DNA from: Candidatus Omnitrophota bacterium
GTDB taxonomy: Bacteria; Omnitrophota; Gorgyraeia; Aquiviventales; Aquiviventaceae
Reading direction: 5' to 3'
Assembly: GCA_016209275.1 (NCBI GenBank)
Contig: JACQWM010000004.1
Location: 42,243 to 106,242, forward strand
Length of the DNA stretch: 64,000 nt
A program made the translations under genes and the position numbers. Shown piece by piece: positions 17,440 through 63,765 of this stretch. The stretch's first letter is position 1, and the number at the start of each line of letters is the position of its first letter. Below the pieces are notes generated by a model, which was not told the DNA's origin, did no database searches, and saw only the letters and a list, made by a program, of their open reading frames with translations.

Positions 17440-18222
17440 ATGGATCTTCATGGCCGACGCGCCGTGGTGACGGGTGGGGCCGGGCATGTGGGGCGGGTCA
17501 TCGGCGCAACACTCATCGAGCTAGGTGCGACGGTGACACTGCTGGATCTCGACGCGTCCGCCGTTCGCGCGCGCGCCCGGGAACTCTCGAGATCCGGAAG
17601 CGGCGAAGCGCTCGGGCTGGCGTGCGACTTGACGGATGAGGCCGAGACGCGCGGCACGCTGCGGACCGCGGTCAAGGCGATGGGCGGAGTCGACATTCTG
17701 ATTCACAATGCCGCCTATGTGGGCAACCTGTCTCGGCCTGGCTGGTCGGTGCCGTTTGAGCAGCAAACCGTGGAGGGGTGGGATGCTGCGCTGCGTGTGA
17801 ATTTGACCGCGGCATTTGTGATGGCGCAGGAAACCCACAAGGCGCTGGGTGCCTCAGGCCATGGCAGCATCGTTCTGATCGGCTCCATCTATGGCGTTTC
17901 CGCGCCGGACTTTCGTCTCTATGAGGGGACCGCGATGGCCAACCCGGCGGCGTATGCGGCGTCCAAAGGCGGGCTGCTGCAATTGATGCGGTATTTAGCT
18001 ACGTGGCTCGCCCCCCGGGTGCGGGTCAATGCCATTTCTCCCGGCGGGCTGTTGCGCGGCCAGCCGAGCAGCTTCCAACAGCGCTACGTAGAGCGGACAC
18101 CGCTTGGCCGGATGGGAACCGAGGAGGATGTGAAAGGTGCGGTCGCCTACCTCGCCAGCGATCTTTCGGCATACGTCACAGGACATAATCTGATGGTGGA
18201 TGGAGGATGGACCGCGTGGTGA
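17440..18222 (+). CDS. SDR-family short-chain dehydrogenase/reductase
   Basis: RAVVTGGAGHVGR Rossmann motif and the SDR catalytic YxxxK region (YAASKGG). Alternative in-frame starts at 17380 and 17419. Confidence 0.6.
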   Translation: MDLHGRRAVVTGGAGHVGRVIGATLIELGATVTLLDLDASAVRARARELSRSGSGEALGLACDLTDEAETRGTLRTAVKAMGGVDILIHNAAYVGNLSRPGWSVPFEQQTVEGWDAALRVNLTAAFVMAQETHKALGASGHGSIVLIGSIYGVSAPDFRLYEGTAMANPAAYAASKGGLLQLMRYLATWLAPRVRVNAISPGGLLRGQPSSFQQRYVERTPLGRMGTEEDVKGAVAYLASDLSAYVTGHNLMVDGGWTAW

Positions 18223-19268
18223 TGAACGTCGACATCGCTGGGCATCGCGTGGGTTTGGGACACCGGTGTGTGATCATCGCCGAGGCCGGGGTCAATCACA
18301 ACGGCAGCATCGAGACGGCGCGCCGGTTGGTGGATGCGGCGGTGGATGTCGGCGCTGATGCCGTGAAGTTTCAGGCTTTTTCCGCCCAGCGGCTCGTGGC
18401 CGCCTCTGCGCCGAAGGCGGCGTACCAGGCGCGCACCACCGGCGCAGGCGAGTCGCAGCTGGCGATGCTTACGCGCCTGGAATTATCCGCGCGCGATCAT
18501 CAGGACCTCTTCGCCTACTGCCGGCAGCGAGGGATCATGTATCTGTGCACGCCATTCGATGAGGCGAGTGCGGATTTCTTGGCCGAGCTCGGTGTAGCGG
18601 CATTTAAGTTGCCATCCGGAGAGCTGACCAACCTGCCGTTGCTTGCGCACGTGGCGAGGAAGGGCAGGCCGATACTGGTGTCAACCGGGATGGCCACCCT
18701 CGCCGAGGTCCGCAGCGCGGTGGAGGCCATCCGGCAGGCAGGGAATCCGCCGCTGATTCTGCTGCATGCGGTGAGCAGCTATCCGGCCGATGCGGCCGAT
18801 GCGAATCTCAGGGCCATGCAGACGATGGGCGATGTGTTCGGCGTGCCGGTGGGGTATTCAGATCATACGCTCGGCATCGAAGTGGCGTTGGCGGCGGTCG
18901 CCCTGGGTGCGTGCGTCATTGAAAAGCACGTCACACTGGACCGCACGCTGCCCGGGCCTGACCACCGCGCGTCGCTTGAGCCGCATGAGTTCGCCTCGTT
19001 GGTGCGAGGCATCCGAACGGTGGAAGCCTCACTTGGCCACGGGCGCAAAGAGCCGGCGGCGAGCGAAGCGAACACGGCGGCGGTGGCGCGCAAGAGCCTG
19101 GTGGCGGCGCGGCCGATTGCTCGGGGCAGTGTGGTGACGGCTGATGCCGTGGCGATCAAGCGGCCGGGGACCGGCCTAGCACCCACCGAGCTTTCGCGCA
19201 TCGTGGGAAAAATCGCCGCGGAAGATATTCCGGCGGATGCGCTCTTTACCCTGGAGATGCTGACATGA
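18207..19268 (+). CDS. neuB: N-acetylneuraminate synthase family (NeuB/LegI-like) with C-terminal SAF domain
   Basis: CVIIAEAGVNHNGS...AVKFQAF signature. ~350 aa, consistent with NeuB plus SAF. Start could instead be 18222. Confidence 0.8.
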   Translation: MDRVVMNVDIAGHRVGLGHRCVIIAEAGVNHNGSIETARRLVDAAVDVGADAVKFQAFSAQRLVAASAPKAAYQARTTGAGESQLAMLTRLELSARDHQDLFAYCRQRGIMYLCTPFDEASADFLAELGVAAFKLPSGELTNLPLLAHVARKGRPILVSTGMATLAEVRSAVEAIRQAGNPPLILLHAVSSYPADAADANLRAMQTMGDVFGVPVGYSDHTLGIEVALAAVALGACVIEKHVTLDRTLPGPDHRASLEPHEFASLVRGIRTVEASLGHGRKEPAASEANTAAVARKSLVAARPIARGSVVTADAVAIKRPGTGLAPTELSRIVGKIAAEDIPADALFTLEMLT

Positions 19269-37147: not shown

Positions 37148-37154
37148 GAGGGGC

Positions 37155-37316
37155 ATGATGAGCAAAGGACGCGTCCTTCGGGAATTTTGGCAGTTCCTCT
37201 GGCAAGAAAAAAAGTTCTGGCTGATTCCGATTGTGGTGGTGCTGGTCCTCTTCGGCGCGCTGCTGGTCTTTTCGCAAAGCAGCGCGGTGGCCCCCTTTAT
37301 CTACACGCTGTTTTGA
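37155..37316 (+). CDS. SxtK-like small membrane protein (53 aa; not in the supplied ORF track)
   Basis: MMSKGRVLREFWQFLWQEKKFWLIPIVVVLVLFGALLVFSQSSAVAPFIYTLF. Its stop overlaps the carbamoyltransferase ATG (TGATG). Confidence 0.45.
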   Translation: MMSKGRVLREFWQFLWQEKKFWLIPIVVVLVLFGALLVFSQSSAVAPFIYTLF

Positions 37317-41718: not shown

Positions 41719-41835
41719 TGCGAGGATGGTGGGGTCGTCTCTGGGCGCGCGTGCGATCGCTATTCTCTCGGAAGAAAAAAACTGAGTCCGGCGCGCAGAA
41801 AAATATTTACCCCATGTGGTAGCCAGGGGATGCCG

Positions 41836-50123: not shown

Positions 50124-51244
50124 TTCCTCATCCGATCGAGGCCGCAAGCGGCCGCCTGCGGGTGTTGCAGTACTTGCCGTGGCTGCATGCGCAGGGCATC
50201 CAGTGCGAGGTCCGCCCGTTCATGCCGCCGGCGCTTTATCGGCTCCTGTATCAGCCTGGGCGGCTCCCGCAGAAAATTTCGATGAGCGCTGCAGCGGTGA
50301 TCCGTCGCTGCCTCGATGTGGGGCGCGTGGCGAAGGCCGACGTGGTGGTGGTCCATCGCGAAGCCTGGCCGCTGGGCACGGCGCTGCTTGAGCGGCTGAT
50401 GGCTCGGCGATCTTCCGCCATGGTGTTTGATTTTGATGATGCCATTTACCTTCCGCACGCGAGCCGGGTCAACGCGTGGGCGAACGTCTTCAAGCGTCCG
50501 GGAAAAATCTCCCAGGTCATTGCCGCCAGCACGCACGTCACGGCCGGCAATTCCGTGCTGGCCGGCTACGCCCGCCGGTACAACCCCAAGGTGAGCATCA
50601 TTCCCACGCCGGTCGATACCGAGGCCTTTCATCCGCGGCAGGCCAGGGTGGATTCGTCCCGGTTGGTGATCGGATGGATGGGGAGCCACACGACCGCCAG
50701 TTACTTGCAGGAAATCCGCCGTCCGCTTGAACAGCTCCTCCGAGCGCATCCGCAGGTCGAGCTTCGCGTGGTGGGAGCCGGGCATCTGCCGTATCGGCTG
50801 CCGAATCTCCAGGAGATTCCGTGGACGCTGGAATCCGAGCAACACGAGTTGCACCGGTTTGATATCGGCCTGATGCCCATGCCGGATGATCCCTGGACCC
50901 AGGGCAAATGCGGGTTTAAGGCCCTCCTCTACATGAGTGTTGGGATTCCTGTCGTGGCCTCGCCGGTTGGGGTCAACAGCGCGATCATCCAGGATGGGGT
51001 GTCAGGGTTTCTGGCCAACGATGAGCAGACGTGGTTCGATCGGCTCGCTCAGCTCATCGACGATGAAGCGTTGCGGCGCCGCATGGGGCGTGCTGGCCGC
51101 GCGATGGTCGAGCAGGAATATTCCGTCAAGGCCCAAGCGCCGCGCCTGATTCGCGTGCTCCGCGAGGCGCATGACGGGCCTCGGGGCGATGGCGTGCCTC
51201 TCAGCGAGCCGGTTCATGCGGGAGCGAGTCATGCCGCAGCCTAG
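50105..51244 (+). CDS. GT4-family (GT-B) glycosyltransferase
   Basis: C-terminal block GFKALLYMSVGIPVVASPVG...E...FDR of retaining GT-B enzymes. The GTG start was chosen by alignment to typical N-termini. Confidence 0.6.
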   Translation: MRVLFVIPHPIEAASGRLRVLQYLPWLHAQGIQCEVRPFMPPALYRLLYQPGRLPQKISMSAAAVIRRCLDVGRVAKADVVVVHREAWPLGTALLERLMARRSSAMVFDFDDAIYLPHASRVNAWANVFKRPGKISQVIAASTHVTAGNSVLAGYARRYNPKVSIIPTPVDTEAFHPRQARVDSSRLVIGWMGSHTTASYLQEIRRPLEQLLRAHPQVELRVVGAGHLPYRLPNLQEIPWTLESEQHELHRFDIGLMPMPDDPWTQGKCGFKALLYMSVGIPVVASPVGVNSAIIQDGVSGFLANDEQTWFDRLAQLIDDEALRRRMGRAGRAMVEQEYSVKAQAPRLIRVLREAHDGPRGDGVPLSEPVHAGASHAAA

Positions 51245-53606
51245 CCCATTCGAGGCCGGATTCAGGCTGCTGCTCCTCATCGGGGTGGGGACTGGGCTCT
51301 TGTGGTTTCTGGCAAGGCGGGTCACGCCGCATCGAGGGCTTCGCAGCGTGCTGATCGCGACGTTCAGCCTACGAGCCATCCTCGGCGTGTCGCTCTACGC
51401 GATCTCCTATTGGGGCTGGCCCGTGCTTCGGTCGCTGCAGTTTTCGCGCGGCTTCTGGCTCTTCAGCCCTGATTCGCGGATGTACCATTATTACGGCTGG
51501 CAATTTGCCCAGGCGTGGGCCAACGGCACGCAGCTGCCGGATCCGGTCCTGGCTCCTGATTATTTCGTGGTGGTCGCGAGCATCTACACGATGCTTGGCG
51601 CCCACCCCCTGTATCCCATCCTGCTCAACGCTTGGCTGGCGGCGGCGACCGGGTTGCTGGCATTTGTGCTCGCCCGGGACGTCTTCGGGCCGCGGACGGC
51701 GATCGTCACCGCGGCCTTGGTGAGCGCTTGGCCCTCCACCTTCATCTGGTCCGCCCAACTGTTGAAGGACTCGGTGACATGGTGCCTGGTGTTTTCAGCG
51801 CTCGTGCTGGTGGTGCGCATCGTCCGCGCGGCGAAGCATCACGAAGGACGCGGCGCTGGCCGCTTGTCTGCGCGGTATCTTGGTCTTGCCGTTTCAGTGC
51901 TCTTCCTTACGCGGTTTCGGTTCTACCTCGGGTCCGCCTTCCTCCTCGGGGCCATCATCGTGGCGCTTCCGGCTGCAGGCCTCGCCCTTCGGCGAAGGCA
52001 GATGGCGCGCGCGCTGGCGTATGGAGGGCTCGTCACGGTGGTCGCGCTTTCGACCATTTTTGCGAGGACGCTGCCGGTGCTGGCCCTCGTGTCGCCAGCC
52101 CATCCGGAACGCGGCCATTTCCGGCTCGCCGAGAGCTACTATGCGCAGGGGAACCTCGAGCGGGCGGAGCACCATTTATCGAGAGCCGTATCCTTGGATC
52201 CAACCTCTCGAGAGGCGGCCCTAGGGCTTGCGGCAGTGCAGGTGCAGCGGCAACGATTCCCCCAGGCGCTTGAGATCTATAAGCAGTACCTGCATCAAGG
52301 CGATCCGACTGAGCAAGCGGTGATCCGGAAGATCATCGTGCAGATCTATCTGGATCGCGCGACGGTCAATGCGGATGCGGAGTACTGGGAAGGCGTGGCC
52401 GCGGCCTACCAACAGATCTTGGAGCTGGAGCCGACCCTGCTGCCGATTCACCTGGAGTACAGCATGGCGCTGGCCCAGCTGCGGCGTTTTGAGAAGGCCA
52501 AGGACGCGCTGGCACACGCCAAGCTGTTGATCCGCACCCCGGAGGAGCAGGCGGAGTACTCGGCGGCGATCGATCGCATGGTGCAGATTTATCTGGATCG
52601 CGCGAAGGCGAATACGGATGGAGCGTACTGGGAAGGCGTGGCCGCGGCCTATCAACAGATCTTGGAGCTGGAGCCGACCCTGCTGCCGATTCACCTGGAG
52701 TACAGCATGGCGCTGGCCCAGCTGCGGCGTTTTGAGAAGGCCCAGGCTGCGCTGGAGCGCGCCAAACCGTTGATCCATACCTCGGAGGAGCAAGCGGACT
52801 TCGCCGCAGCGCAGGCCGAGCTTCAGGCGCTGCTTAAGGGAAAGCCGCGAAGGTGGATCCGCAAACGCTCCATCATGCCTGCGGTGCTGCCGAAGAGCAG
52901 CGGTATGTCAGTGAATCCGGAAGAGTTGCTGTCGCTGGCGTTATCCTTGTTCCCACGGACCGGGGGTGCGCTGCGGCTGCGGTTGTCGCGCGAAAGCGGC
53001 CGAGGGTTCTCCATGTTGTCGCACAGCGTCTCCCAGATGGATGAGCAAGCGATCGCGACGATCCGTGAAACATCCCCCGAAGCCCTCGCGGTGCGGCGCG
53101 AGGGATTTGTCTCCAGCGGAGGGTACTCCCTCACCGATGCCTGGGCGAAAATTTCAAGCCCTCGCAAACTGATCACGTATCTTCCGCGAGCGATGGCGAT
53201 TGGTTTTCTCGCTCCGTTTCCCTGGCAATGGTTTGATCTCCGCGGCAGCACCGGGATCATGCGGGTGTTCGCGGGCCTGGAAATGCTGGGCTTCTATCTG
53301 CTCATTCCCGGATTGATCCGCGGGGTGTCTCGCCTCGCATCGCTGCGGCGCGTGGAAGCGCTCTTCCTCCTGGCGGTGATCGCCTCCATTGCAGCGCCCG
53401 TGTCCCTGGTCGTGGCCAACATGGGCACGCTGTTTCGGCTTCGGCTGCTGTTTCTGTTGCCCCTCTTGCTCATTGCCGCGCACGGTGACCCCATCGAGAT
53501 CTATCGGAGGATCTTTCGGAGGCCTCCAGCACTCCCTGAGGGAAGTCCCCATGAGCATCGTCAGGCCGGCGCGCTCGAAGACGCGTTGTCCGGAGGCGTG
53601 AAGTAG
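51231..53606 (+). CDS. Polytopic membrane protein with an internal duplicated TPR-like soluble domain (possible polymerase/ligase-like)
   Basis: Multiple hydrophobic segments at the N- and C-termini. A central region with an 81-aa repeat unit (EYWEGVAAAYQQILELEPTLLPIHLEYSMALAQLRRFEKA x2). Confidence 0.45.
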   Translation: MPQPSPFEAGFRLLLLIGVGTGLLWFLARRVTPHRGLRSVLIATFSLRAILGVSLYAISYWGWPVLRSLQFSRGFWLFSPDSRMYHYYGWQFAQAWANGTQLPDPVLAPDYFVVVASIYTMLGAHPLYPILLNAWLAAATGLLAFVLARDVFGPRTAIVTAALVSAWPSTFIWSAQLLKDSVTWCLVFSALVLVVRIVRAAKHHEGRGAGRLSARYLGLAVSVLFLTRFRFYLGSAFLLGAIIVALPAAGLALRRRQMARALAYGGLVTVVALSTIFARTLPVLALVSPAHPERGHFRLAESYYAQGNLERAEHHLSRAVSLDPTSREAALGLAAVQVQRQRFPQALEIYKQYLHQGDPTEQAVIRKIIVQIYLDRATVNADAEYWEGVAAAYQQILELEPTLLPIHLEYSMALAQLRRFEKAKDALAHAKLLIRTPEEQAEYSAAIDRMVQIYLDRAKANTDGAYWEGVAAAYQQILELEPTLLPIHLEYSMALAQLRRFEKAQAALERAKPLIHTSEEQADFAAAQAELQALLKGKPRRWIRKRSIMPAVLPKSSGMSVNPEELLSLALSLFPRTGGALRLRLSRESGRGFSMLSHSVSQMDEQAIATIRETSPEALAVRREGFVSSGGYSLTDAWAKISSPRKLITYLPRAMAIGFLAPFPWQWFDLRGSTGIMRVFAGLEMLGFYLLIPGLIRGVSRLASLRRVEALFLLAVIASIAAPVSLVVANMGTLFRLRLLFLLPLLLIAAHGDPIEIYRRIFRRPPALPEGSPHEHRQAGALEDALSGGVK
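52341..52826 (+). repeat. Tandem direct repeat, 243-bp unit x2 inside the CDS (near-identical ~117-bp core at 52383-52499 and 52626-52742)
   Basis: Direct comparison of the sequence shows only a few mismatches across the core. Confidence 0.8.
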
Positions 53607-53610
53607 CTCG

Positions 53611-55539
53611 ATGTGCGGCATCGCTGGCGTGGTCCACTTCGACGGGCGTCCGGTTGCGAGCGACGTCCTGCAGGGCATGGTCGCCGCCCTCCGCCACCGC
53701 GGACCGGAGGGCGAAGGGATCCAGAGCCTGGCGACCGGTTCGCTCCGTATCGGACTTGGGCATGCGCGGCTGAAGATCATCGATCTGTCCGATGCGGCGG
53801 CTCAGCCGATGGGAAACGATGATGGCTCCATCTGGCTCGTCTTCAACGGGGAGATCTATAACTTTCGTGAGTTGCGCGCCTCGCTTGAGCAGCGAGGCCA
53901 CCGGTTCCGGACCTCCTCGGATACCGAGGTGTTGCTGAAGCTCTACGAGGCGGACGGCGACGCGTGCGTGCAGCAGCTTGAGGGCATGTTCGCCTTCGCG
54001 ATGTGGGACAGCCGGAAAGGGCAGCTGCTGCTGGCCAGAGACCGGGCAGGGAAGAAGCCGCTGTTCTACCGTGCGACCCCGACGATGATCGCGTTTGCCT
54101 CGGAGATGAAGGCGTTGTTTCAGCACCCGGATATCGTTCCTGAAGTAGACACCGCAACACTTCCTGCGTTTTTTCTCTTTGGGTATGTTCCCTCGCCCGC
54201 GACCATCTACCAGGGGATCCAACAGCTGCCGCCTGGGCAAGTGCTCATCGCAAGAGACGGCCACGTGCGCCTTCAGGAGTACTGGGATGCGCCGCTGCCG
54301 CCGGCATCCAGCGGCCGCGCACCCTCCGAGGCTGAGGCGGCTTCGCGCGTGCGCGAGCTCCTCACGGCGGCAGTGGCACGGCGGCTCATCAGCGACGTGC
54401 CGCTGGGCGCGTTCCTCAGCGGCGGCATTGATTCCTCGATCGTCGTGGGGATCATGAGCCGGCTGTGTGATGAGCCGGTGCGGACGTTCAGCATCGGGTT
54501 TGCCGGGGATCCTGCGTTTGATGAAACGTCCTACGCGCGGATCGTGGCCAAGCGATTTGGCACGCGCCACACGGAGTTTATCGTCGAGCCGAAAGCGATT
54601 GAGCTCATCGACCGGCTCGTGTGGCATCACGACGGTCCGTTTGCCGACTCCTCGGCGATTCCGACCTATCTGCTGGCTCAGTTGACCAAACAGCACGTGA
54701 CGGTGGCGTTAAGCGGCGATGGGGGCGATGAGCTCTTTGCCGGCTATCAGCGGTTCCGCGCGGTCCTGTTGTCAGAAGCGATTCCCAGGTGGCTCCGCAC
54801 GGCCGGCGCTTCAGCGCTGACCCGGCTGCCGGCCTGGGGGCATCCCCGAAGCCTGTATCGCCGAGCGCAACGCTTCGCGCAGGGCACCGTGCTGCCGTTT
54901 GAGCACCGGGTGAACCGCTGGGTCTCAATTTTCTACGAGGATCTGCCGCAGCTGCGGCTCGGCGCATCAGGGGGCGCGACGCATCCTTCGATAGCCTGCG
55001 CGTCCTACCTGGCGCGCAGCCGGCAGGCCTCGGCGCTGACGCAATTGCTCTATGTCAATTTCAAGATGTATCTGTTGGATGACTTGCTCGTGAAAATGGA
55101 TCGGTGCTCCATGGCGCATGCGTTGGAAGCCCGATCGCCGTTTCTGGATCGTGCCCTCATCGAATACGTGTGTGGGCTGCCGGATGCCATGAAACTCCGC
55201 GGAGGAGCGACCAAAGTCATTCTTCGCAAGGCGTTCGCCGACCTGCTGCCCCCGGAAGTGCTCACGCGGGGAAAAATGGGCTTCGGCGTGCCGCTGCATC
55301 ACTGGTTTCGGTATGAGCTGCGCGATTTCGTCACCGATTGGCTGCTTGCACCGAACGCGTTGCTGCGGCAGTATCTGCATCAGCCGTATGTGCGGCAGCT
55401 GGTTCAACAGCACTTCGCCGGGCGCTGCGACCATTCCCACCGGCTGTGGACGCTGCTGACCTTTGAAGTCTGGCTGCAGCAGCTGCGCCGCGGCGCGTTC
55501 CGCGCGGCCGCGCCTTCCCTCAACCTCGTCACACAATAA
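53611..55539 (+). CDS. asnB: Asparagine synthase (glutamine-hydrolysing) family amidotransferase, AsnB/WbpS-like
   Basis: MCGIAG N-terminal nucleophile and an SGGIDSS PP-loop. 642 aa. Confidence 0.85.
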   Translation: MCGIAGVVHFDGRPVASDVLQGMVAALRHRGPEGEGIQSLATGSLRIGLGHARLKIIDLSDAAAQPMGNDDGSIWLVFNGEIYNFRELRASLEQRGHRFRTSSDTEVLLKLYEADGDACVQQLEGMFAFAMWDSRKGQLLLARDRAGKKPLFYRATPTMIAFASEMKALFQHPDIVPEVDTATLPAFFLFGYVPSPATIYQGIQQLPPGQVLIARDGHVRLQEYWDAPLPPASSGRAPSEAEAASRVRELLTAAVARRLISDVPLGAFLSGGIDSSIVVGIMSRLCDEPVRTFSIGFAGDPAFDETSYARIVAKRFGTRHTEFIVEPKAIELIDRLVWHHDGPFADSSAIPTYLLAQLTKQHVTVALSGDGGDELFAGYQRFRAVLLSEAIPRWLRTAGASALTRLPAWGHPRSLYRRAQRFAQGTVLPFEHRVNRWVSIFYEDLPQLRLGASGGATHPSIACASYLARSRQASALTQLLYVNFKMYLLDDLLVKMDRCSMAHALEARSPFLDRALIEYVCGLPDAMKLRGGATKVILRKAFADLLPPEVLTRGKMGFGVPLHHWFRYELRDFVTDWLLAPNALLRQYLHQPYVRQLVQQHFAGRCDHSHRLWTLLTFEVWLQQLRRGAFRAAAPSLNLVTQ

Positions 55540-55581
55540 TTGAGTTGCAAGTGAAGAGCGGTTTCCATACAATTGATGCAG

Positions 55582-55598
55582 TGTTCATATTCTGAACA
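55582..55598. promoter_or_regulatory. Palindromic candidate operator TGTTCA-N5-TGAACA in the 64-bp intergenic gap
   Basis: An inverted repeat seen directly in the sequence, 6 nt upstream of the regulator ATG. This is the only AT-richer non-coding gap of this size in the window. Confidence 0.3.
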
Positions 55599-55603
55599 TC
55601 ATC

Positions 55604-56242
55604 ATGGACGTTGACGCCTACCGAGAATTACAGCTCCTGACGGAGATTTCCGCAAGCGATTCCGTCACTCAGCGCCGCTTGGCGCAAAAGCATGGCCTGG
55701 CACTGGGCCTGACGAATTTCCTGATCCGACGGCTGGTCAAGAAGGGCTATGTCAAGATCGTCAACTTGGAGCGCAAACGCCTTCGCTATCTCATCACCCC
55801 GAAAGGCATCGCTGAAAAAGCCCGGCTCACCTACGAATACGTGGAATACTCGCTCCACCTCTACCGTCAGATCCGCACCCTGGTGACGCGCACCATCTCG
55901 ACCATGGCCGTCTCAGCGGGCGCTTCCGTCGTGCTCTACGGCACCGGGGAGATCGCGGAGATCGCGTTTCTCTTGATGCAGCAGCGCGGCTTGCGCGTGG
56001 TCGGGGTCGTGGATGAGTCGCGCAGCGACCAGAGCCTGTTCATGAGCCATGCCATCACCCCGCCTGAGGCCCTCGAGCGCCTCTCGTTTGATTGGGTGCT
56101 GATCGCGTCGTTTAAGAATCACCGGCAGATTATCCAGCAGCTCTGCCGCTGGGGCGTGCCGGAGCAAAAAATCGTCCGGATTGCTGAAGAGCAGCAAGTC
56201 CCATCGCTGCCGGAGGCGATGGTGGAGGTCTCCTCATCATGA
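55604..56242 (+). CDS. Winged-helix (MarR-like) transcriptional regulator with C-terminal Rossmann/CoA-binding-like domain
   Basis: The N-terminus SDSVTQRRLAQKHGLALGLTNFLIRRLVKKGYV resembles wHTH. The C-terminus VVLYGTGEIAEIAF... resembles NeuD/sugar-transferase N-terminal domains. Confidence 0.45.
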   Translation: MDVDAYRELQLLTEISASDSVTQRRLAQKHGLALGLTNFLIRRLVKKGYVKIVNLERKRLRYLITPKGIAEKARLTYEYVEYSLHLYRQIRTLVTRTISTMAVSAGASVVLYGTGEIAEIAFLLMQQRGLRVVGVVDESRSDQSLFMSHAITPPEALERLSFDWVLIASFKNHRQIIQQLCRWGVPEQKIVRIAEEQQVPSLPEAMVEVSSS

Positions 56243-57003
56243 GGGTGAAGCGACGGCGGATTCCGAAGGCGCTGGTGGTGATGGGGGTCGGCCTCGGCGC
56301 GGTTTGTCTGCTGATCGCCCCGGTCGCCTCGACGCGGCAAGGGGTGAATTTCCAGGTGTCCCAGCACCGCATCCCTCCGTATGTGAAAGCGATCGATTTC
56401 CTCCATCGGCACTACGCCTATCAGCGCCTGGCACGGGAGATCACCGAGGGCAAGACGACCGATGACGCCCGAGTGCTCGCGGTCTTCAATTGGACGCGGG
56501 AGCATATCCAGCCGATGCCAAAGGGCTGGCCGGTCATCGATGACCACATCCTCAACATCATCATCCGAGGCTATGGCCTCGGCGATCAGATGGCGGATGT
56601 CTTCACCACACTCTCCACGTACGCTGGCGTTCCCGCGTTCTGGAAAGATTTGCGCGCGAGCGACACTCCGGGAGTGCTGGTGCTGTCGTTTGCCAAGATC
56701 GATGGCCAGTGGGTGATCGTCGACGTGGCGGATGGGTTGATCTTCCGTATGCCGGATGGCTCCTTGGCGGATGCCGCCGCACTCGTGGAGAACCCGCCCG
56801 TGCTGAAAACCGTGGTGCAAGCGCGCACCCGCAGCGGCATCGAGTACTGGCGTTACCTTGAAACGATGCGGCCGTTTTCCGTTCCGAACACGCTGCGCGC
56901 GCAGCAGCAGATGCCCGGGCCGCGCCTATGGTTTGAGCTCCGGCGCGCGCTGCATCTGGCCGGCGCGTATGACCAAACACGGTGGGCGCTCCATGCCCGG
57001 TGA
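56239..57003 (+). CDS. Hypothetical membrane-anchored/exported protein
   Basis: N-terminal signal-anchor (ALVVMGVGLGAVCLLIAPVAS). No recognised catalytic motif. Confidence 0.35.
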   Translation: MRVKRRRIPKALVVMGVGLGAVCLLIAPVASTRQGVNFQVSQHRIPPYVKAIDFLHRHYAYQRLAREITEGKTTDDARVLAVFNWTREHIQPMPKGWPVIDDHILNIIIRGYGLGDQMADVFTTLSTYAGVPAFWKDLRASDTPGVLVLSFAKIDGQWVIVDVADGLIFRMPDGSLADAAALVENPPVLKTVVQARTRSGIEYWRYLETMRPFSVPNTLRAQQQMPGPRLWFELRRALHLAGAYDQTRWALHAR

Positions 57004-58036
57004 TCCATCGGCCCTGGCCATGCCTGTCTCCGCCGCGGCGTTTAGCGCATTTCGGATCGGATTCCACCCGGCGGATCAGGTGAGGGTGCTTGAGTATTGG
57101 CGTGAAATTTTTAATTCGCAACAGTGGGTGGAAGGCCAGTACACCAAGCGCTTCGAGGAGTTGTGGGCCGCGTGGAATGCGCTGCCGGCGGTGGCGACCT
57201 CAAGCTGGGGCGGGGCTGCGCTGGCCGCCTTGGACTATTTCAAGGTTCGCGGGAAAACCGTGCTATGCCCTACGAATACGTTCATGGCAACCCCGCTGTC
57301 GGTCATCCATGCCGGCGGGACGGTCGTCTTCGGCGACTGCAACCGAGACGATTTGTGCCTCAGCTACGAGGCGGTGGCGCAGGCGGCCAAGGCGCAGGAG
57401 CTTGCGGCCGTGTGGCTCGTGCACATCGGCGGCCATCTGGCTTTTGACACGCCGCGCATCGCGGAGTTCTGCCGGGCCAACGGCATCATCCTGCTTGAAG
57501 ATTGCGCCCACGCGCATGGGGCCTCATGGCACGGCCAGCGGCCTGGCAGCTTCGGCGATGCCGGGGTCTATTCATTTTACGGCACCAAAACGATTTCGAC
57601 CGGCGAGGGCGGCATGCTGGTCTCAAAACATCCTGGCCTCATCGAGTTCGCGAAAGGATTCCGCAATTACGGCAAGCCAACCTACCAGGTGTCGGGCCTG
57701 AACTACCGGATGTCGGAGTTCACCGCGGCCCTCGGCGTGGTCCAGGTTGAGCGCATGGAGGAGATCGTGGCCTGGAAGCGCGCGGTGGCGGCCAGGGATC
57801 TTGATCCTGTGTTTGCGCAGCGCGTGCGGCTGCCTGAGGGTATGCAGTCCGGCTACTACAAATACATCGTGTTTGAGCCGATTGCGCGCTCCAGCGGCAA
57901 GGTTTACGACACGCTCTGCCACACCATCATGGGGCAGGGCGGATCATTTCCCAACGCCGAGTGGATCGCGCAGCATCACTGGTGCGTTCCGCTCTATTAC
58001 CATCCTGAGCTGGACAACAATGGAGTGGATGCATGA
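56993..58036 (+). CDS. DegT-family PLP-dependent sugar aminotransferase/dehydratase (third copy)
   Basis: Lys-region SFYGTKTISTGEGGM. Start uncertain. Confidence 0.65.
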   Translation: MPGDPSALAMPVSAAAFSAFRIGFHPADQVRVLEYWREIFNSQQWVEGQYTKRFEELWAAWNALPAVATSSWGGAALAALDYFKVRGKTVLCPTNTFMATPLSVIHAGGTVVFGDCNRDDLCLSYEAVAQAAKAQELAAVWLVHIGGHLAFDTPRIAEFCRANGIILLEDCAHAHGASWHGQRPGSFGDAGVYSFYGTKTISTGEGGMLVSKHPGLIEFAKGFRNYGKPTYQVSGLNYRMSEFTAALGVVQVERMEEIVAWKRAVAARDLDPVFAQRVRLPEGMQSGYYKYIVFEPIARSSGKVYDTLCHTIMGQGGSFPNAEWIAQHHWCVPLYYHPELDNNGVDA

Positions 58037-58974
58037 GAGTTCTCGTGACAGGCGGCGCAGGCTTTATTGGATCGCATGTGGTGGATCGTTTGGTGGCGCA
58101 CGGGGTGGTGCCGCTCATCTTCGATCAGCAGCGCTCCACGTATCACCCGTCGGTCGAGCACTGCATCGGCAGCATCCTGGACGTGGAGGCCCTGCGGGTG
58201 GCGATGTTCGGTGTGCAAGCGATCATCCATCTGGCGGCGGTTGCGGATGTGAAAGATGTATTCGAGGATCCTTCCTACGCCGAAATGGTGAACACGCGCG
58301 GCACGGCCTGCGTGCTCGAGGCGGTCCGGCGCTCCAAGGTGATGCGCATCGTCTATGGCAGCACGACTTGGGTGTATAGCGACGTGCCCCAGCAGGAGGT
58401 GGACGAAGACACGCCATTGGCCGCGCCCTCGCATCTGTACACCGCCACGAAAATCGCGTCGGAATATTACTGCCAGGCGTACGCAAAGCTCTACGGCATC
58501 GAGTACACGATCCTGCGCTTCGGCATTCCCTATGGCCCTCGCGCGCGCGATGGGGCGGTGATCCCGATCTTCGTCAACAAAGCGCTTCAGGGCGAGCCGC
58601 TGACGATCGCCGGCGACGGCTCGCAGTTCCGCAAGTTCGTCTATGTCGAGGACCTGGCTGAGGGCAACGCGCTGGCGTTAGCTCCAGCCGCGAAGAATCG
58701 CATCTATAACCTCGATGGAGCTGAGCCGGTGACGATCAAGCAGATCGCCGAGACGGTGCAGCGCGTCCTCGGCGGCGCGCGCATTGAGTATGTGGCGGCC
58801 CGGCCTGGGGATTTCAGCGGCAAGCGGGTGCTCAGCGCGCGGGCGAAACAGGAGCTTGGATGGGAGCCGACGACGCCATTTGAAGAGGGCGTGCGGCGGT
58901 ACGTGCAGTGGGTCAAGCACCGGAAGGACCAGCGGGATGCGGAAGAAGCCCGGCTCGACCCGGCCTTGCGGTAG
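58033..58974 (+). CDS. NAD-dependent sugar epimerase (GalE-like)
   Basis: VLVTGGAGFIGSHVV Rossmann motif. YTATK catalytic motif. Confidence 0.75.
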   Translation: MRVLVTGGAGFIGSHVVDRLVAHGVVPLIFDQQRSTYHPSVEHCIGSILDVEALRVAMFGVQAIIHLAAVADVKDVFEDPSYAEMVNTRGTACVLEAVRRSKVMRIVYGSTTWVYSDVPQQEVDEDTPLAAPSHLYTATKIASEYYCQAYAKLYGIEYTILRFGIPYGPRARDGAVIPIFVNKALQGEPLTIAGDGSQFRKFVYVEDLAEGNALALAPAAKNRIYNLDGAEPVTIKQIAETVQRVLGGARIEYVAARPGDFSGKRVLSARAKQELGWEPTTPFEEGVRRYVQWVKHRKDQRDAEEARLDPALR

Positions 58975-58992
58975 CGCGGCGATGCGCTGGGC

Positions 58993-59715
58993 ATGAGTCG
59001 GATCAGCGTGATCCTCTGCTGTTATAACGGAGCCCCCTGGGTCGGCGAGGCGCTGGGGAGCCTTGACCGACAAACCATGCCGCGCGATGGCTACGAAGTG
59101 GTCTTCGTCAATGACGGGTCCACCGACGCGACAGAACAGGCGATGGCCCCGTATCGTGCGCGCAGCAACGTGCAGTACCTGGCCCATGAGCGCAATCAAG
59201 GGCTCGTGGCCTCCTGCAACCAGGCGCTTGAGGCCTCACACGGCGAGTATATCGTCCGCCTGGATGCGGACGACACGTTTGAGCCGCCGCTGCTTGAACG
59301 GATGTCGACGCTGCTGCGTGAGGGCCAGACCGATCTGGTGTATTCCGACCGCTACGAGTGGTCCGAGAAGCGCCGGGCGCGCCGTCTCATCACATTAGGG
59401 AGCTTTAATCTTTTTGATCTGACGGCCGTCGGGACCATGATGCGGCGCGATCTCGTGTTGAGCGTCGGGGGGTACCGCGAACTCTTCTGGGAAGAATACG
59501 ACCTCTACCTGCGGTATTTGCTGCGCAGCGGCCGGGCGGCGTCCCGGGTGCCTGAGCCGCTGTTTACGTACCGCCGCCACCACGGCAGCATGACCAGTGA
59601 TCCTGCGGCGGTGCGCCGTGGATGGGAAGAGTTGCAGCGAGTGTGGCCGGCAAGCATGCTGGAACGGTTTGGGCGGTGTCCGGATTCAACAGCCTGCGCA
59701 GAGGCCGCGTTCTGA
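58993..59715 (+). CDS. GT2-family glycosyltransferase
   Basis: ISVILCCYNGAPWV...VNDGSTD...DADD motifs. Confidence 0.7.
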   Translation: MSRISVILCCYNGAPWVGEALGSLDRQTMPRDGYEVVFVNDGSTDATEQAMAPYRARSNVQYLAHERNQGLVASCNQALEASHGEYIVRLDADDTFEPPLLERMSTLLREGQTDLVYSDRYEWSEKRRARRLITLGSFNLFDLTAVGTMMRRDLVLSVGGYRELFWEEYDLYLRYLLRSGRAASRVPEPLFTYRRHHGSMTSDPAAVRRGWEELQRVWPASMLERFGRCPDSTACAEAAF

Positions 59716-60524
59716 TGGCGCCGCGGACCACCATCATTGCGGAGATCGGCGAGAACCATGTCGGCGACTGGGATCGCGCGCGGCAGATGATCTGTGCTGC
59801 CGCCGCCACCGGCGCGGACATCGTCAAATTTCAGTCCTATCGCAGCGCGGATGTGGCGGATGACGATCCGGAAAAGACGTGGTTTGGGCGCGTGGAAGTC
59901 CCGGATGCCGTGCACCGGCAGCTCGCCCAGGCGGCTCGAGCCGCCGGGGTGGGATTCTTGAGCGCGCCGTTCACCGTTGAGCGGGCGCAGTTTCTGTGCG
60001 AGCAGATGGGATTGCGGGCCGTCAAGATCGCCTCCTCCGAGCTGTTGAACAGGCGGTTGTTGGACTATGTGAGCACGCAGGCGGAGACGGTGTATCTGTC
60101 GACAGGGATGGCGACGCTGGATGAGGTGCGCGAGGCGGTCACCCGCCTGCGCGCCGTCCCGCGCGTGATCATCATGCATTGCGTGACCCAGTACCCGCTG
60201 AAGGATGAGGACGCCAACTTGCGGGCCATCGAAGCGCTGCGGCAGGCGTTCCCTGAGCATTCGATCGGATACTCTGATCACACCATCGGGATCACGGCGC
60301 CGCTGATCGCCGTGGCGTTGGGCGCTGCCGTGATCGAGAAGCATTTCACCATGGATAAATCGCTGCCAGGCACGGATCATGCGCTCTCTGTCACCCCGGA
60401 GGAGCTCAGGGCCATGGTGGACGGCATTCGCCGGGTGGAGCGGCTCTTGGGGGTGGCCGAGAAGCAGCCGGTGGCGGCGGAGCTGGCCATTCGCGACGCG
60501 GTCCGTGCGAGGTTTCCGAAATGA
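59715..60524 (+). CDS. NeuB-family ulosonate synthase lacking the SAF domain (SpsE/PseI-like)
   Basis: TTIIAEIGENHVGD...DIVKFQSY signature. Only ~269 aa, with no C-terminal SAF domain. Confidence 0.65.
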   Translation: MAPRTTIIAEIGENHVGDWDRARQMICAAAATGADIVKFQSYRSADVADDDPEKTWFGRVEVPDAVHRQLAQAARAAGVGFLSAPFTVERAQFLCEQMGLRAVKIASSELLNRRLLDYVSTQAETVYLSTGMATLDEVREAVTRLRAVPRVIIMHCVTQYPLKDEDANLRAIEALRQAFPEHSIGYSDHTIGITAPLIAVALGAAVIEKHFTMDKSLPGTDHALSVTPEELRAMVDGIRRVERLLGVAEKQPVAAELAIRDAVRARFPK

Positions 60525-62620
60525 GCCAAGAGCCGATGCGCATCTTCCTCGCCGATCTCACGCACGACGGCACCGGCAAGCTCGCCGTCGACATGATGCC
60601 CTACAACATCGGCCTCATCGCCTCGTATGCCAAGCAGCAGCTTGGCGATGCGGTGCAGATTTCGCTCTTCAAATATGTGCAACCGCTGCTTGAGGCGCTG
60701 AAGTGCCAACCGCCGCACATCCTCGGATGCAGCAATTACGTGTGGAACAGCCACCTCTCGGAATTCGCCTGCGAGCACGCGAAGCAGATCAACCCCGCGA
60801 TCGTCACGGTGCAAGGGGGCACGAACTATCCGTTTGACGCGCCAAGCCAGCTGGCGTTTCTGTCAACGCGGCCAGCCACGGATCTCCACGTGTACTATGA
60901 AGGCGAGGCCGCGTTTGTGAATCTTCTCAAGGCGTTTCAATCGTCTCCTGATGTCCGCGAGCTGCGCGAGCGTCCGATCGACGGATGCCAGTCCATCTCG
61001 CCGACCACCGGCCGGTTGGTGTCCGGAGCCGCGGTGGCGCGCATCAGCGCGTTGGGGGAGATCCCCTCGCCCTATGCCACCGGCCTCTTGGATCAATTTT
61101 TCGATGGGCGGCTCACTCCCATTGTCGAAACGAATCGCGGGTGCCCCTTCACGTGCAACTTCTGCAACGCCGGCAACAGCTATTTTTCGAAGGTCAACAT
61201 GTTCCCGCTGGAGCATCTGGAGGCGGAGTTTTCCTACATCGCGCCGCGGATGGCGGCCTCAGGCGTGGGCCTGCTCGTGCTGGCCGACAACAATTTCGGC
61301 ATGTATCCTCGCGATGCGGAGCTCTGCCGGATCCTCAAGCGGCTGCAGGAGCGGCACGGCTGGCCCCTGCGCATCCTCTCGACCACCGGCAAGAACAGCA
61401 AGGACCGCATCATCAAGGCGACGGAAATCTTAGGGACCAGCATGAGCATCAACATGTCTGTCCAATCAATGAACCAGGCGGTGCTGGAGAACATCCGGCG
61501 TCAGAATGTGAGTCTTGAGGCGTACCAGCAGATCAACGAGGTGCTGGTGCGACAGGGCCGCGTGCAGAAAGCCGAGATGATCGTGCCGCTGCCTGGCGAA
61601 ACGCTCGCGTCGTTCATGCAGGGTCTGAAGGAGCTCATGGACACCAAGGCCCAGCTCATCTACTCCTATACGCTGCAACTGCTCTACGGCACGGAGTACA
61701 AGGACGCGGCGTACCGAGCCCAGTGGGGCTACCAGGGCAAGTGGCGGCTCGTGCCGCTGAATTTCGGCGCCTACGACGGCACGAAGATCTTTGACGTGGA
61801 AGAAGTGGCGGTGGCGTCCAAGAGCCTGTCATTCGACGACTATGTGAAGATCCGCGTCTTCGCGCTGCTGACGGAGACGATGTACAACGATTATCAATGC
61901 TGGGAATTCGTGAAATATCTCAATGCGTGGGGGATTTCGCCGTTTGATTGGCTGGCGAACACGGCGGAGCACCTGCACCAGGCCCCCGAGTCCGTTCAAC
62001 AGATCGTGCAAAGTTTCATCCGTGATACCCAAGAAGAGCTGTGGGATTCAGAAGAGGCCTTATTCGAGTTTTATCGCCGGCCGGAACATTATGCCCGGCT
62101 GCTCAAGGGCGAGGCCGGGCATAATGTCGTGTTTACCCATAAAGGCCTGATGATCAGCCGGCATATTGAGGACTGGGTGCCGTTCATCGCCCGCATGTGC
62201 CGCGAACTCGTCCAGGAGCGCGTGCCCACCGCGAACCCTGAGGCCGTGAGGAAGGAGGTTCACGCGCTTGAGCAGTTCCTGCTGGCGAAATTCGAAGGGG
62301 TCTTGCGCAAGGATGGAAACGTTGACGACGTGTTCGTGGAGCTTGCCTACGACATCCCTCAATGGCTCAGCGACAGCAGCGGCAAACCCCTCGGCGCCTT
62401 TGCGCGCGAAACGCCGATGGCCTTCCGCGTGTACTTTACGGATGCTCAACGCAAAGAGCGTGAACAATGCCTGAGACTCTACGGCTTTGATCGCATCGGC
62501 CTGGCCAGGATTTTCGCGCGCAATCCATCGCTGAACACCTTGTATCGCGCCGTGGAGCCTGCGGGGCAGGCGGTCACGATTCCCCAGCGCCCTGAGTGGC
62601 GGCCGGCATGGAACAATTAA
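60521..62620 (+). CDS. Cobalamin-binding-domain radical SAM enzyme (class B, putative methyltransferase)
   Basis: N-terminal B12-binding-like region, a CPFTCNFC (Cx3Cx2C) cluster and a long C-terminal extension. 699 aa. Confidence 0.7.
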   Translation: MSQEPMRIFLADLTHDGTGKLAVDMMPYNIGLIASYAKQQLGDAVQISLFKYVQPLLEALKCQPPHILGCSNYVWNSHLSEFACEHAKQINPAIVTVQGGTNYPFDAPSQLAFLSTRPATDLHVYYEGEAAFVNLLKAFQSSPDVRELRERPIDGCQSISPTTGRLVSGAAVARISALGEIPSPYATGLLDQFFDGRLTPIVETNRGCPFTCNFCNAGNSYFSKVNMFPLEHLEAEFSYIAPRMAASGVGLLVLADNNFGMYPRDAELCRILKRLQERHGWPLRILSTTGKNSKDRIIKATEILGTSMSINMSVQSMNQAVLENIRRQNVSLEAYQQINEVLVRQGRVQKAEMIVPLPGETLASFMQGLKELMDTKAQLIYSYTLQLLYGTEYKDAAYRAQWGYQGKWRLVPLNFGAYDGTKIFDVEEVAVASKSLSFDDYVKIRVFALLTETMYNDYQCWEFVKYLNAWGISPFDWLANTAEHLHQAPESVQQIVQSFIRDTQEELWDSEEALFEFYRRPEHYARLLKGEAGHNVVFTHKGLMISRHIEDWVPFIARMCRELVQERVPTANPEAVRKEVHALEQFLLAKFEGVLRKDGNVDDVFVELAYDIPQWLSDSSGKPLGAFARETPMAFRVYFTDAQRKEREQCLRLYGFDRIGLARIFARNPSLNTLYRAVEPAGQAVTIPQRPEWRPAWNN

Positions 62621-63765
62621 TGGAGCGTTCGGGCCGCGTGCGCGTGTTGGCGGCTGCGCAGGAAGCGGGCGCAGCCAACGCGCTGGTTCCGGTCATCACC
62701 ACGTTGCGCCGAAGCCTGTCTGCCGAGGTGGTCGTCGCCGCCTGCGCGCAAGCGGCAGAGGTCTTTGCGGGTGCCGGGCTCTCGCCACGCCAGGCGGACG
62801 CGATCGAACCGTTGATGCGCGAGGCATCGCCCAACGTCCTGCTATTGGGCACATCGTGGGGATGGACGCTCGATAAACGCTTGCTGTCGCTCGGCAATGA
62901 GTGCTTGCTGCCGTCGGTCTCGGTGGTGGATCATTGGACCCATTACCGAGAGCGGTTTCTTGATCCGAGATCGAATCGGCTCGTGCTTCCCACGAGAATC
63001 GCGGTGCCGGATCAGGTAGCACTCGCCCAAGCCGCGCGCGCAGGTCTGCCTGAGGATCTGATGATCGCGACCGGGCACCCGCATCTTGAAACCATGATCA
63101 ACGCCTTGGAAGCCCCAGGGTGCCAAGCGCGCGCTCGCGAGCTGCGCCGGGCTTGGTGCGAATCGCTCGGCCGATCGCCTGATGGCTCGCGCGTCGTCCT
63201 GTTCGTATCAGAGCCGTTTTCTCAATTTCATGGGCCAGGCAGCCCGTCCCCGTATGATTTTACTGAGCAAGACGCCCTGGAGGGCGTTGTGGAAGCGATT
63301 GAAACACTCGAGCAGCAGACGCGCGGGCGTCTAGCGCTGGTAGTGAAGCGGCACCCGCGGGAGCAATCGCAACCGCTGCAGTTTGGGTCGCGCGCGAAGC
63401 GTCGCAATCTCTGCGTGGTGTCAGGACAAGAGCCGTCATCTGTTTGCGTCATGGCGGCTGATCTCGTCGTGGGGATGTTGTCGATGGTGTTGCTGGAGGC
63501 GGTGCTCGCCGGCCGGCCGGCGAGCAGCTTCCGGCCGACGCGGACCGCTGCCGAGGCATTTATCGGCTCTGAGCTGGGTCTGGTTGAGTCTGCCTTCTCC
63601 GTTGAGGCGCTGCGGCGATGGCTCAGCGAGGCGTGCAGCGCCGGATCATCCGCCAGAGATCGGATGCGCCAGGCCGCCGCAGGAGTGCTCGCGCATCAGG
63701 GGGCCGCCGCTCGGATCGCCGATCTGGTGATGGAGCTGGCGGTTGAGGCCAGGATGGCGTCATGA
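62608..63765 (+). CDS. Hypothetical protein, capsule-synthesis/GT-B-like (KxHP motif)
   Basis: VVKRHPRE motif and overall resemblance to the C-terminal halves of the 28130 and 30208 proteins. Confidence 0.35.
   Translation: MEQLMERSGRVRVLAAAQEAGAANALVPVITTLRRSLSAEVVVAACAQAAEVFAGAGLSPRQADAIEPLMREASPNVLLLGTSWGWTLDKRLLSLGNECLLPSVSVVDHWTHYRERFLDPRSNRLVLPTRIAVPDQVALAQAARAGLPEDLMIATGHPHLETMINALEAPGCQARARELRRAWCESLGRSPDGSRVVLFVSEPFSQFHGPGSPSPYDFTEQDALEGVVEAIETLEQQTRGRLALVVKRHPREQSQPLQFGSRAKRRNLCVVSGQEPSSVCVMAADLVVGMLSMVLLEAVLAGRPASSFRPTRTAAEAFIGSELGLVESAFSVEALRRWLSEACSAGSSARDRMRQAAAGVLAHQGAAARIADLVMELAVEARMAS

Follow-up and report, generated by a model that had tools for sequence, protein, structure and literature searches.

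MarR regulators have a six-helix architecture of ~140-150 amino acids (aa), in which the N- and C-terminal helices form the dimer interface. Rex acts as a homodimer on a palindromic operator, and NAD(H) in its Rossmann domain repositions the N-terminal DNA-binding domains (PMC8836258); in S. aureus, the Rex operator is TTGTGAA-W4-TTCACAA (PMC2883068). For LexA, the operator in Verrucomicrobia is TGTTC-N4-GAACA, while Firmicutes, Actinobacteria and Gallionellales have the differently arranged motif GAAC-N4-GTTC (PMC4951493). In this study, we analyzed a 64-kb stretch of contig JACQWM010000004.1 from a Candidatus Omnitrophota bacterium (hereafter the window) with regard to a 17-bp palindrome, TGTTCA-TATTC-TGAACA, located in a 64-bp gap ahead of a gene for a 212-aa winged-helix protein with a Rossmann-like C-terminal domain. 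To our knowledge, dedicated transcriptional control of nonulosonic-acid (sialic-acid-like) operons is poorly understood. Our overall reading, which we consider likely, is that this protein is a dimeric autorepressor on the operator of an internal promoter of a nonulosonic-acid operon and is probably modulated by a nucleotide ligand.

Palindrome and predicted promoter ahead of the regulator gene

The following features were obtained for the gap and the regulator gene:

55540..55603, + strand: intergenic gap of 64 bp, between the asparagine synthase stop at 55539 and the ATG at 55604
55545..55573, + strand: predicted sigma-70-type promoter (-35 TTGCAA at 55545-55550, 17-nt spacer, -10 TACAAT at 55568-55573)
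55582..55598, no strand: candidate operator TGTTCA-TATTC-TGAACA, exact palindrome of 17 bp (core GTTCA-N5-TGAAC at 55583-55597)
55604..56242, + strand: regulator gene of 212 aa, an open reading frame (ORF) with a structure model of mean pLDDT 84

For the conservation analysis, one genome per GTDB species was scanned for the regulator, which gave 28 loci, all from metagenome-assembled genomes (MAGs) and belonging to Omnitrophota, Planctomycetota, NC10, Binatia, Acidobacteriota, Gemmatimonadota and Acidimicrobiia. Motifs were counted in the window and these 28 genome loci, i.e. in 29 sequences with 353 kb. The exact core GTTCA-N5-TGAAC was present in 30 copies, whereas the 59 other permutations of the half-site had 0.08 occurrences on average, which is an enrichment of more than 300-fold. 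Only the spacer of 5 was enriched; every other spacer from 0 to 11 had 0-2 occurrences. All 33 distinct related loci, from at least seven phyla, carry the fixed-N5 palindrome upstream of the regulator gene or its operon, and in the rest of these loci it is essentially absent. In three further metagenome loci (L032-L034, 10-17 kb each), exact sites were found solely ahead of the regulator gene. The distance to the start codon is 9-110 nt for 27 of 29 regulators. The two exceptions are locus L003, where a short-chain dehydrogenase (SDR) gene is inserted ahead of the regulator and the site lies 808 nt upstream, and locus L025, where the site is located at 2902, about 3 kb upstream and before other + strand ORFs, with the same promoter layout. 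A second site in L024 precedes a paralogue of the regulator with 28% identity. The site counts and the consistent positions across genomes show that the palindrome is a conserved cis-element tied to the regulator family.

Tandem operators were observed at L015:5937-5972, L016:5933-5962 and L034:1052-1089 with starts 21, 15 and 23 bp apart, respectively, which suggests cooperative or higher-order binding in those lineages.

Within the window, TGTTCA-TATTC-TGAACA has one exact match only. Allowing up to two mismatches, one further match was found inside a gene at 61459, which is probably due to chance (0.83 expected). When the gap was shuffled, 15% of the resulting sequences had a perfect inverted repeat (6+6, spacer 0-12 nt), and among 64-nt pieces taken at random from the window the share was 19%; from such frequencies (15-19% of random 64-nt sequences) the palindrome might be taken for a functionless chance inverted repeat in an AT-richer spacer. 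This is excluded by the 30 exact copies with one and the same spacer at equivalent gene positions in 29 sequences, more than 300-fold over the controls, and the probability of a chance repeat is practically nil. Hence, the palindrome is considered real because of its conservation in other genomes and not because of window statistics.

The promoter TTGCAA-17-TACAAT was detected by a consensus scan and has 9 of 12 consensus matches. Judged from its position, transcription likely starts near 55580-55582, so that the palindrome would span approximately +1 to +18 of the transcript. After alignment of all sites anchored on the palindrome, a -35 element of the TTGACA- or TTGCxx-type was seen, and the -10 hexamer ended 6-10 nt before the palindrome or overlapped its left arm. 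A promoter with at least 8 of 12 matches and a -10 hexamer ending between 10 nt before and 2 nt inside the palindrome was found at 23 of the 33 sites compared to 1.8% of random positions. In L029, whose regulator is 91% identical, 35 of the 36 positions from the -10 hexamer through the ATG agree. Neither the -10 hexamer nor the palindrome has changed there, and the -35 core is also retained, in contrast to the heavily substituted 17-nt promoter spacer. As far as the sequence comparison goes, this arrangement is that of a repressor operator on an internal promoter. We regard it as probable that the palindrome is the operator of the 212-aa protein on a real promoter. Conservation, spacing and promoter position were computed; the binder, the repression and the start site are inferred.

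A preliminary description of the window, made from its sequence, had already pointed to several of these features. The AT-richer gap of 64 bp was found as described, with the upstream ORF ending at 55539, the next ATG at 55604 and a G+C content of 39% compared to 63% in the window. The same is true for the ORF of 212 aa following the palindrome (55604-56242), the start of which is in line with the N-terminal ends of over 40 homologues. The exact repeat was present, but it is separated from the ATG by 5 nt (TCATC) instead of the 6 nt given there. Its designation as a palindromic operator is supported by the occurrence before the regulator or operon in 33 of 33 loci and the near-absence elsewhere, and the suggested internal promoter by the -35/-10 pair upstream of the palindrome, its equivalents at the other sites and the conservation in L029; both assignments stay predictions.

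The adjacent gene could also be merely a target, and the palindrome the site of an unlinked regulator, e.g. a LexA-type repressor. Omnitrophota are generally placed near the Planctomycetes-Verrucomicrobia-Chlamydiae (PVC) group, which counts for such a repressor, and co-occurrence alone does not identify the binder. Both the half-sites and their inverted orientation are identical to the Verrucomicrobia LexA motif (PMC4951493). However, the spacing is different, since TGTTC-N7-GAACA was found in 30 of 30 sites and the N4 arrangement in none (spacer 2 = 0), and the three additional base pairs turn the half-sites by about 100 degrees relative to each other. Also, the site tracks another gene family, namely that of the regulator, through at least seven phyla, the paralogue carries its own copy, and the targets belong to sugar biosynthesis and not to DNA repair. 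As the LexA motif differs between groups (PMC4951493), one LexA motif is not expected to persist across these phyla. An unlinked binder is therefore quite improbable in our view.

The predicted leader in the window has a length of about 23 nt and no Shine-Dalgarno sequence. Such a leader would also be in line with a 5′-leader RNA hairpin controlling translation or mRNA stability, and the predicted fold of 55575-55640 includes such a hairpin, which has a stem of 6-7 bp and a loop of 5 nt and ends 5 nt ahead of the AUG. Its folding energy, however, is nothing unusual (z = -1.0; 28 of 200 shuffles fold as well), and the arm sequence itself is kept across phyla without compensatory changes. Relative to the start codon, the site is found anywhere from -9 to -110 nt (-808 in L003), while its distance to the promoter is fixed, and because the -10 hexamer reaches into the left arm in L007-L010, L013 and L034, this arm would not be fully transcribed there. 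Furthermore, no Rfam family was found in 55300-55800. Altogether, we rate control by a hairpin as highly improbable and keep to the palindrome as an operator. In two Omnitrophota loci (L008:5992-6006 and L018:5992-6006), the ATG of the regulator is located inside the palindrome, which implies leaderless or nearly leaderless mRNAs.

Domain structure of the regulator and candidate ligands

In the structure model, the regulator has three folded parts:

55604..55798, + strand: winged helix-turn-helix (HTH), residues 1-65 (helices 3-17, 23-30 and 34-46; wing 50-64)
55799..55912, + strand: single helix of 38 residues, residues 66-103 (AlphaFold model)
55916..56188, + strand: small Rossmann-like domain, residues 105-195 (G113-x-G115-E-x-A118-E119, acidic residue 137)

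The protein is 100% identical to a Candidatus Omnitrophica MAG protein at NCBI named 'winged helix-turn-helix transcriptional regulator'. There are hundreds of homologues of equal length, and the family comprises 372 representatives (50%-identity clusters) at E≤1e-30 and 2239 at E≤1e-10, with members bearing generic names only.

For the N-terminal part, HTH_24 (PF13412) scored above its gathering threshold (27.8 bits vs 21.9; residues 8-51), while MarR (PF01047; 19.0 vs 24.6) and MarR_2 (PF12802; 20.1 vs 27) stayed below. The NCBIfam model TIGR04176 (MarR_EPS) aligned to residues 8-94 with E=2.3e-18 and 66.2 bits, the curated cut-off being 88. A Pfam match to PadR was not found in the regulator, and neither the Rex-type Put_DNA-bind_N nor CoA_binding was listed at E≤10. 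In structural comparisons, the N-terminal part superposed on MarR repressors, and with lower root-mean-square deviation on PadR-like and Sso10a proteins; the fold matches to MarR and PadR repressors include complexes with DNA. The resemblance of the N-terminus to MarR-type winged-helix regulators, as noted in the preliminary description, is thereby supported. The helix formed by residues 66-103 is presumed from the model to be a dimerisation coiled coil. The best single-sequence match, 8b3s, was aligned to this long helix alone and is probably spurious. For the full-length protein, a PDB fold search gave no entry covering both domains, the regulator-type matches aligning at most 103 of 212 residues, and no direct sequence link to a solved structure was better than E ~1e-3.

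The C-terminal domain is five-stranded in the AlphaFold model and followed by a disordered tail. Its structural matches (match scores in brackets) were the uncharacterised CAC2185-type protein 2g6t (13.2), the WbpM-type fragment 3nkl with 24% identity (11.0), succinyl-CoA synthetase alpha 6mel (10.1), where we take the matching part to be the CoA-binding domain, the Rex structures 5zz5 and 3keo (9.6 and 8.9), and the NeuD-like acetyltransferase 7l7y (8.8). The C-terminus is thus a small Rossmann-like domain similar to the N-domains of WbpM-type and NeuD-type proteins, to CoA-binding domains and to Rex, in agreement with the CoA-binding/Rossmann N-domain of NeuD or sugar transferases to which the preliminary description likened it. 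On the sequence level, residues 109-170 matched the N-terminal part of TIGR03570 (NeuD/PglD) with 13.7 bits compared to a cut-off of 160.8, and the left-handed beta-helix acetyltransferase domain of NeuD/PglD is absent from the structure model of the regulator. C2185-like_N (PF22674) from a local Pfam copy reached 12.5 bits with a cut-off of 27. In a profile search with the domain, Rex gave the top match among solved structures through its NAD(H)-binding domain (E=0.0018); both the glycine-rich loop and the Asp following strand 2 are aligned.

Across 42 homologues, G113 was present in 42, G115 in 39, A118 in 42 and an acidic residue (D/E) at position 137 in 41 sequences, and both E116 and E119 were invariant. 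With regard to spacing, G113 and D137 are placed as in the classical ADP-binding beta-alpha-beta fingerprint. Judged by this conserved fingerprint, NAD(H) is at least as compatible as a nucleotide-sugar or acyl-CoA, and NAD(H), CoA-type and nucleotide-sugar ligands are all candidates. We see about an even chance that the regulator responds to a ligand. Gene pairing and folds were computed, while a ligand and its nature are inferred. When the C-terminal domain alone was used for a profile search, 9 short proteins only were returned; two of these, one from a split gene pair and the other a stand-alone copy, were examined and gave no clue to a ligand.

Alternatively, the protein could be the binder of the palindrome with the Rossmann-like domain as a mere oligomerisation or stability module, so that it would function as a ligand-free constitutive autoregulator or as a read-through insulator. 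The small size of the domain with ~90 residues and the two invariant glutamates in the glycine-rich turn are in favor of this, and the closest structures 2g6t and 3nkl are not given as ligand complexes in the search output. On the other hand, the pattern G-x-G-x-x-A together with an acidic end of strand 2 was kept in 39-42 of 42 diverged sequences, which is the pattern of a ribose/phosphate site rather than of an interface, and the aligned GxG and Asp of the best sequence match belong to an NAD(H)-binding domain. A ligand-free protein is a serious alternative but unlikely, and a domain binding a nucleotide-containing metabolite is preferred.

Separate copies of the domains were also observed. 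At L035:4759-5336, a gene for a 76-aa HTH protein is directly followed by a gene for a 111-aa C-terminal domain, either as a split gene or as a pseudogene, and at L036:2666-3001 a stand-alone 111-aa copy of the Rossmann-like domain follows a NusG paralogue in a sugar locus.

Presumed downstream operon and locus context

The window is a 64-kb block of approximately 60 genes, every one of them on the + strand. The products scanned include glycosyltransferases, sugar-nucleotide epimerases/dehydratases, aminotransferases, methyltransferases, one carbamoyltransferase and two NeuB-family synthases, and both the window and the loci related to it represent clusters for glycans and nonulosonates. The genes next to the regulator are:

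53611..55539, + strand: asparagine synthase family gene, glutamine-dependent, last gene before the gap (Pfam Asn_synthase 7.6e-111 and GATase_7)
56239..57003, + strand: membrane-anchored transglutaminase-like protein (weak Transglut_core, E=7e-4)
56993..63765, + strand: presumed controlled operon, co-directional (Pfam; start codons refined)
56993-58036, + strand: DegT aminotransferase (Pfam)
58033-58974, + strand: NAD-dependent epimerase/dehydratase (Pfam)
58993-59715, + strand: GT2 glycosyltransferase (Pfam)
59715-60524, + strand: NeuB-family synthase, the second in the window (Pfam)
60521-62620, + strand: radical-SAM protein of 699 aa (Pfam)
62596-63765, + strand: 389-aa protein of no known family

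The start of the transglutaminase-like gene overlaps the stop of the regulator gene (ATGA), so that both are translationally coupled, and from the overlapping or abutting reading frames the downstream genes are presumed to be co-transcribed. The transglutaminase-like gene is located directly 3′ of the regulator in L001-L004, L006, L007, L010, L012, L018, L029 and L032 and is its constant 3′ partner in the Omnitrophota loci. On the other side, an asparagine synthase family gene also precedes the regulator in L004, L005, L007, L018, L029 and L032. A matching gene set follows the regulator in L029, L032, L033 and L034. The order in Omnitrophota is regulator and transglutaminase-like gene, then DegT aminotransferase, Polysacc_synt_2-type dehydratase, radical-SAM, WbqC and NeuB genes, and in the other phyla, genes for NeuB, CMP-transferase, aminotransferase and dehydratase were found 3′ of the regulator.

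Since the window contains two NeuB genes, one at 18207-19268 and the other 3′ of the regulator at 59715-60524, the expression 'second nonulosonate-like set' used in the preliminary description for the downstream genes is apt. The two synthases are 42% identical to each other, and a SAF domain was detected in the first and none in the second. The radical-SAM protein (60521-62620) is unusually long, as radical-SAM/SPASM proteins of the related loci have 352-427 aa. Wrong, by contrast, was the statement that 55540-55603 is the sole substantial gap, because 41719-41829 spans 111 nt and 37148-37186 spans 39 nt. The 111-nt gap is located between a GDSL-lipase-like gene and a methyltransferase gene, and its sole ORF has 35 aa with a start overlapping the preceding stop codon; no promoter-like or terminator-like sites were found in it. 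An 811-aa TPR membrane protein encoded at 51171-53606 has a near-perfect internal tandem duplication of ~75 residues, in which ...QIYLDRA...YWEGVAAAYQQILELEPTLLPIHLEYSMALAQLRRFEKA... is present twice (read from the translation only).

In loci of Acidobacteriota, Gemmatimonadota and Acidimicrobiia (L017, L019-L028), a near-invariant leader element, CTGTAAGnGAnrGGCACGrAGTG, was observed 41-78 nt 3′ of each operator and immediately ahead of the first start codon, e.g. at L019:5934-5966, L025:2941-2973 and L024:3198-3230 and 5934-5966. Its 13 instances are on the + strand only, occur nowhere else in these loci, and accompany the operator and not the regulator gene. For this element, neither an Rfam match nor a covarying or conserved RNA structure was found, and it is absent from the window. 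A sigma-54 reading of its acidobacterial form (GGCACGGAGTG) was rejected because, by inspection, the spacing from GG to GC is 2 nt too short compared to the sigma-54 consensus from the literature.

Proposed mechanism and comparison with known systems

We propose that the gap contains an internal sigma-70-type promoter, the start region of which would be covered by the 17-bp two-fold symmetric operator, and that the product of the first gene of the transcription unit binds this operator as a homodimer. Each of the two winged helices would read one GTTCA half-site; the half-sites are 10 bp apart from centre to centre and would be on one face of the DNA, and the long helix (residues 66-103) would hold the dimer together. 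Binding at or just 3′ of the -10 hexamer would shut out RNA polymerase and may also stop read-through from upstream. By such promoter occlusion, the regulator would repress its own synthesis as well as the downstream NeuB-type nonulosonic-acid operon. The Rossmann-like domain most likely binds a nucleotide-containing metabolite, which could be NAD(H), CoA/acyl-CoA or a nucleotide-activated sugar, e.g. a CMP-nonulosonate end product. Such a ligand would change how the DNA-binding domains are arranged and thereby either release or tighten the binding, in analogy to NADH and Rex.

Several points weigh against this proposal. The palindrome by itself is statistically ordinary within the window, and no second site defining a wider regulon was found there. 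The co-occurrence of site and gene fits autoregulation and is not strict proof of the binder. No terminator-like site was found in the gap between the asparagine synthase gene and the regulator; as no upstream terminator is predicted, the downstream genes may also receive transcription from farther upstream. The sequence similarity of the ~90-residue Rossmann-like domain to ligand-bound structures is marginal (best E=0.0018), and Glu116 and Glu119 occupy the start of the helix that normally faces the pyrophosphate, which is not usual in dinucleotide sites. Oligomerisation could be the sole role of the domain, or the domain could bind a non-nucleotide.

The regulator heads sialic-acid-like surface-sugar operons in several uncultured bacterial phyla, and our analysis supplies a large family, the exact operator/promoter layout across at least seven phyla and a candidate sensor domain with a nucleotide-binding fingerprint, thereby turning an anonymous annotation as 'wHTH regulator' into a concrete hypothesis. 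The operator could be used to mark regulated glycan operons in metagenomes or provide an orthogonal repressor-operator pair. More tentatively, and with rather less than even confidence, the regulator may be the first representative of a class of one-component regulators that is widespread in uncultured phyla and has gone unstudied, with a MarR/PadR-like winged helix fused to a minimal Rossmann sensor. In this reading, the sensor would respond to either the CMP- or UDP-activated sugar of the operon or the NAD(H)/acyl-CoA state and exert feedback control on sialic-acid-like surface sugars via GTTCA-N5-TGAAC, and a Rex-like switch would have arisen independently for the control of cell-surface glycans. 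In the literature, no study was found on the regulator family, the operator or the closest structural match of the C-terminal domain, and searches on the motif with MarR, on regulators of nonulosonic acids, on HI1244 and on CAC2185 gave nothing usable.

Among the known systems, Rex (e.g. Thermotoga maritima Rex, PDB 5zz5) is similar in size (~210 residues) and in having a winged helix at the N-terminus and a nucleotide-binding domain of the Rossmann type at the C-terminus, and the regulator likewise has a Rossmann domain in which a glycine-rich loop and, following strand 2, an acidic residue were found. In contrast to Rex, the N-terminal domain of the regulator is not of the Rex type and is joined to the second domain by a 38-residue helix, and its Rossmann-like domain is not as long, carries GxGxxA together with two invariant Glu residues and lacks a Rex-like terminal helix in the model. 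The operator TGTTCA-N5-TGAACA also differs from that of Rex, and the targets are surface-sugar genes instead of respiratory and fermentative ones. With MarR-type autorepressors (MarR, MepR, ST1710/BldR), the regulator would share a palindromic operator over its own promoter, as predicted here by comparative genomics; its model, however, has three helices, a wing and one long helix and not the MarR helix bundle, and the Rossmann-like domain is additional. TIGR04176 (MarR_EPS) proteins align to residues 8-94, and the gene is likewise located in an exopolysaccharide-type glycan locus, but these proteins have a single domain of ~105 aa compared to the 212 aa with an extra domain here. PadR-like and Sso10a proteins combine a winged helix with one long dimerising helix as well, without a comparable sensor domain. 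In 2g6t (CAC2185-type, C2185-like_N), 3nkl (fragment named 'UDP-D-quinovosamine 4-dehydrogenase') and the N-domain of NeuD/PglD, the Rossmann-like domain has an enzyme as its fusion partner and not, as in the regulator, a DNA-binding domain. According to these comparisons, the regulator resembles Rex and MarR-type autorepressors in its predicted action and belongs to neither, as it fails the models for MarR, MarR_2, TIGR04176, Rex and PadR; what is new is the way in which the domains are combined in this predicted one-component repressor with a Rossmann sensor, together with its newly defined operator.

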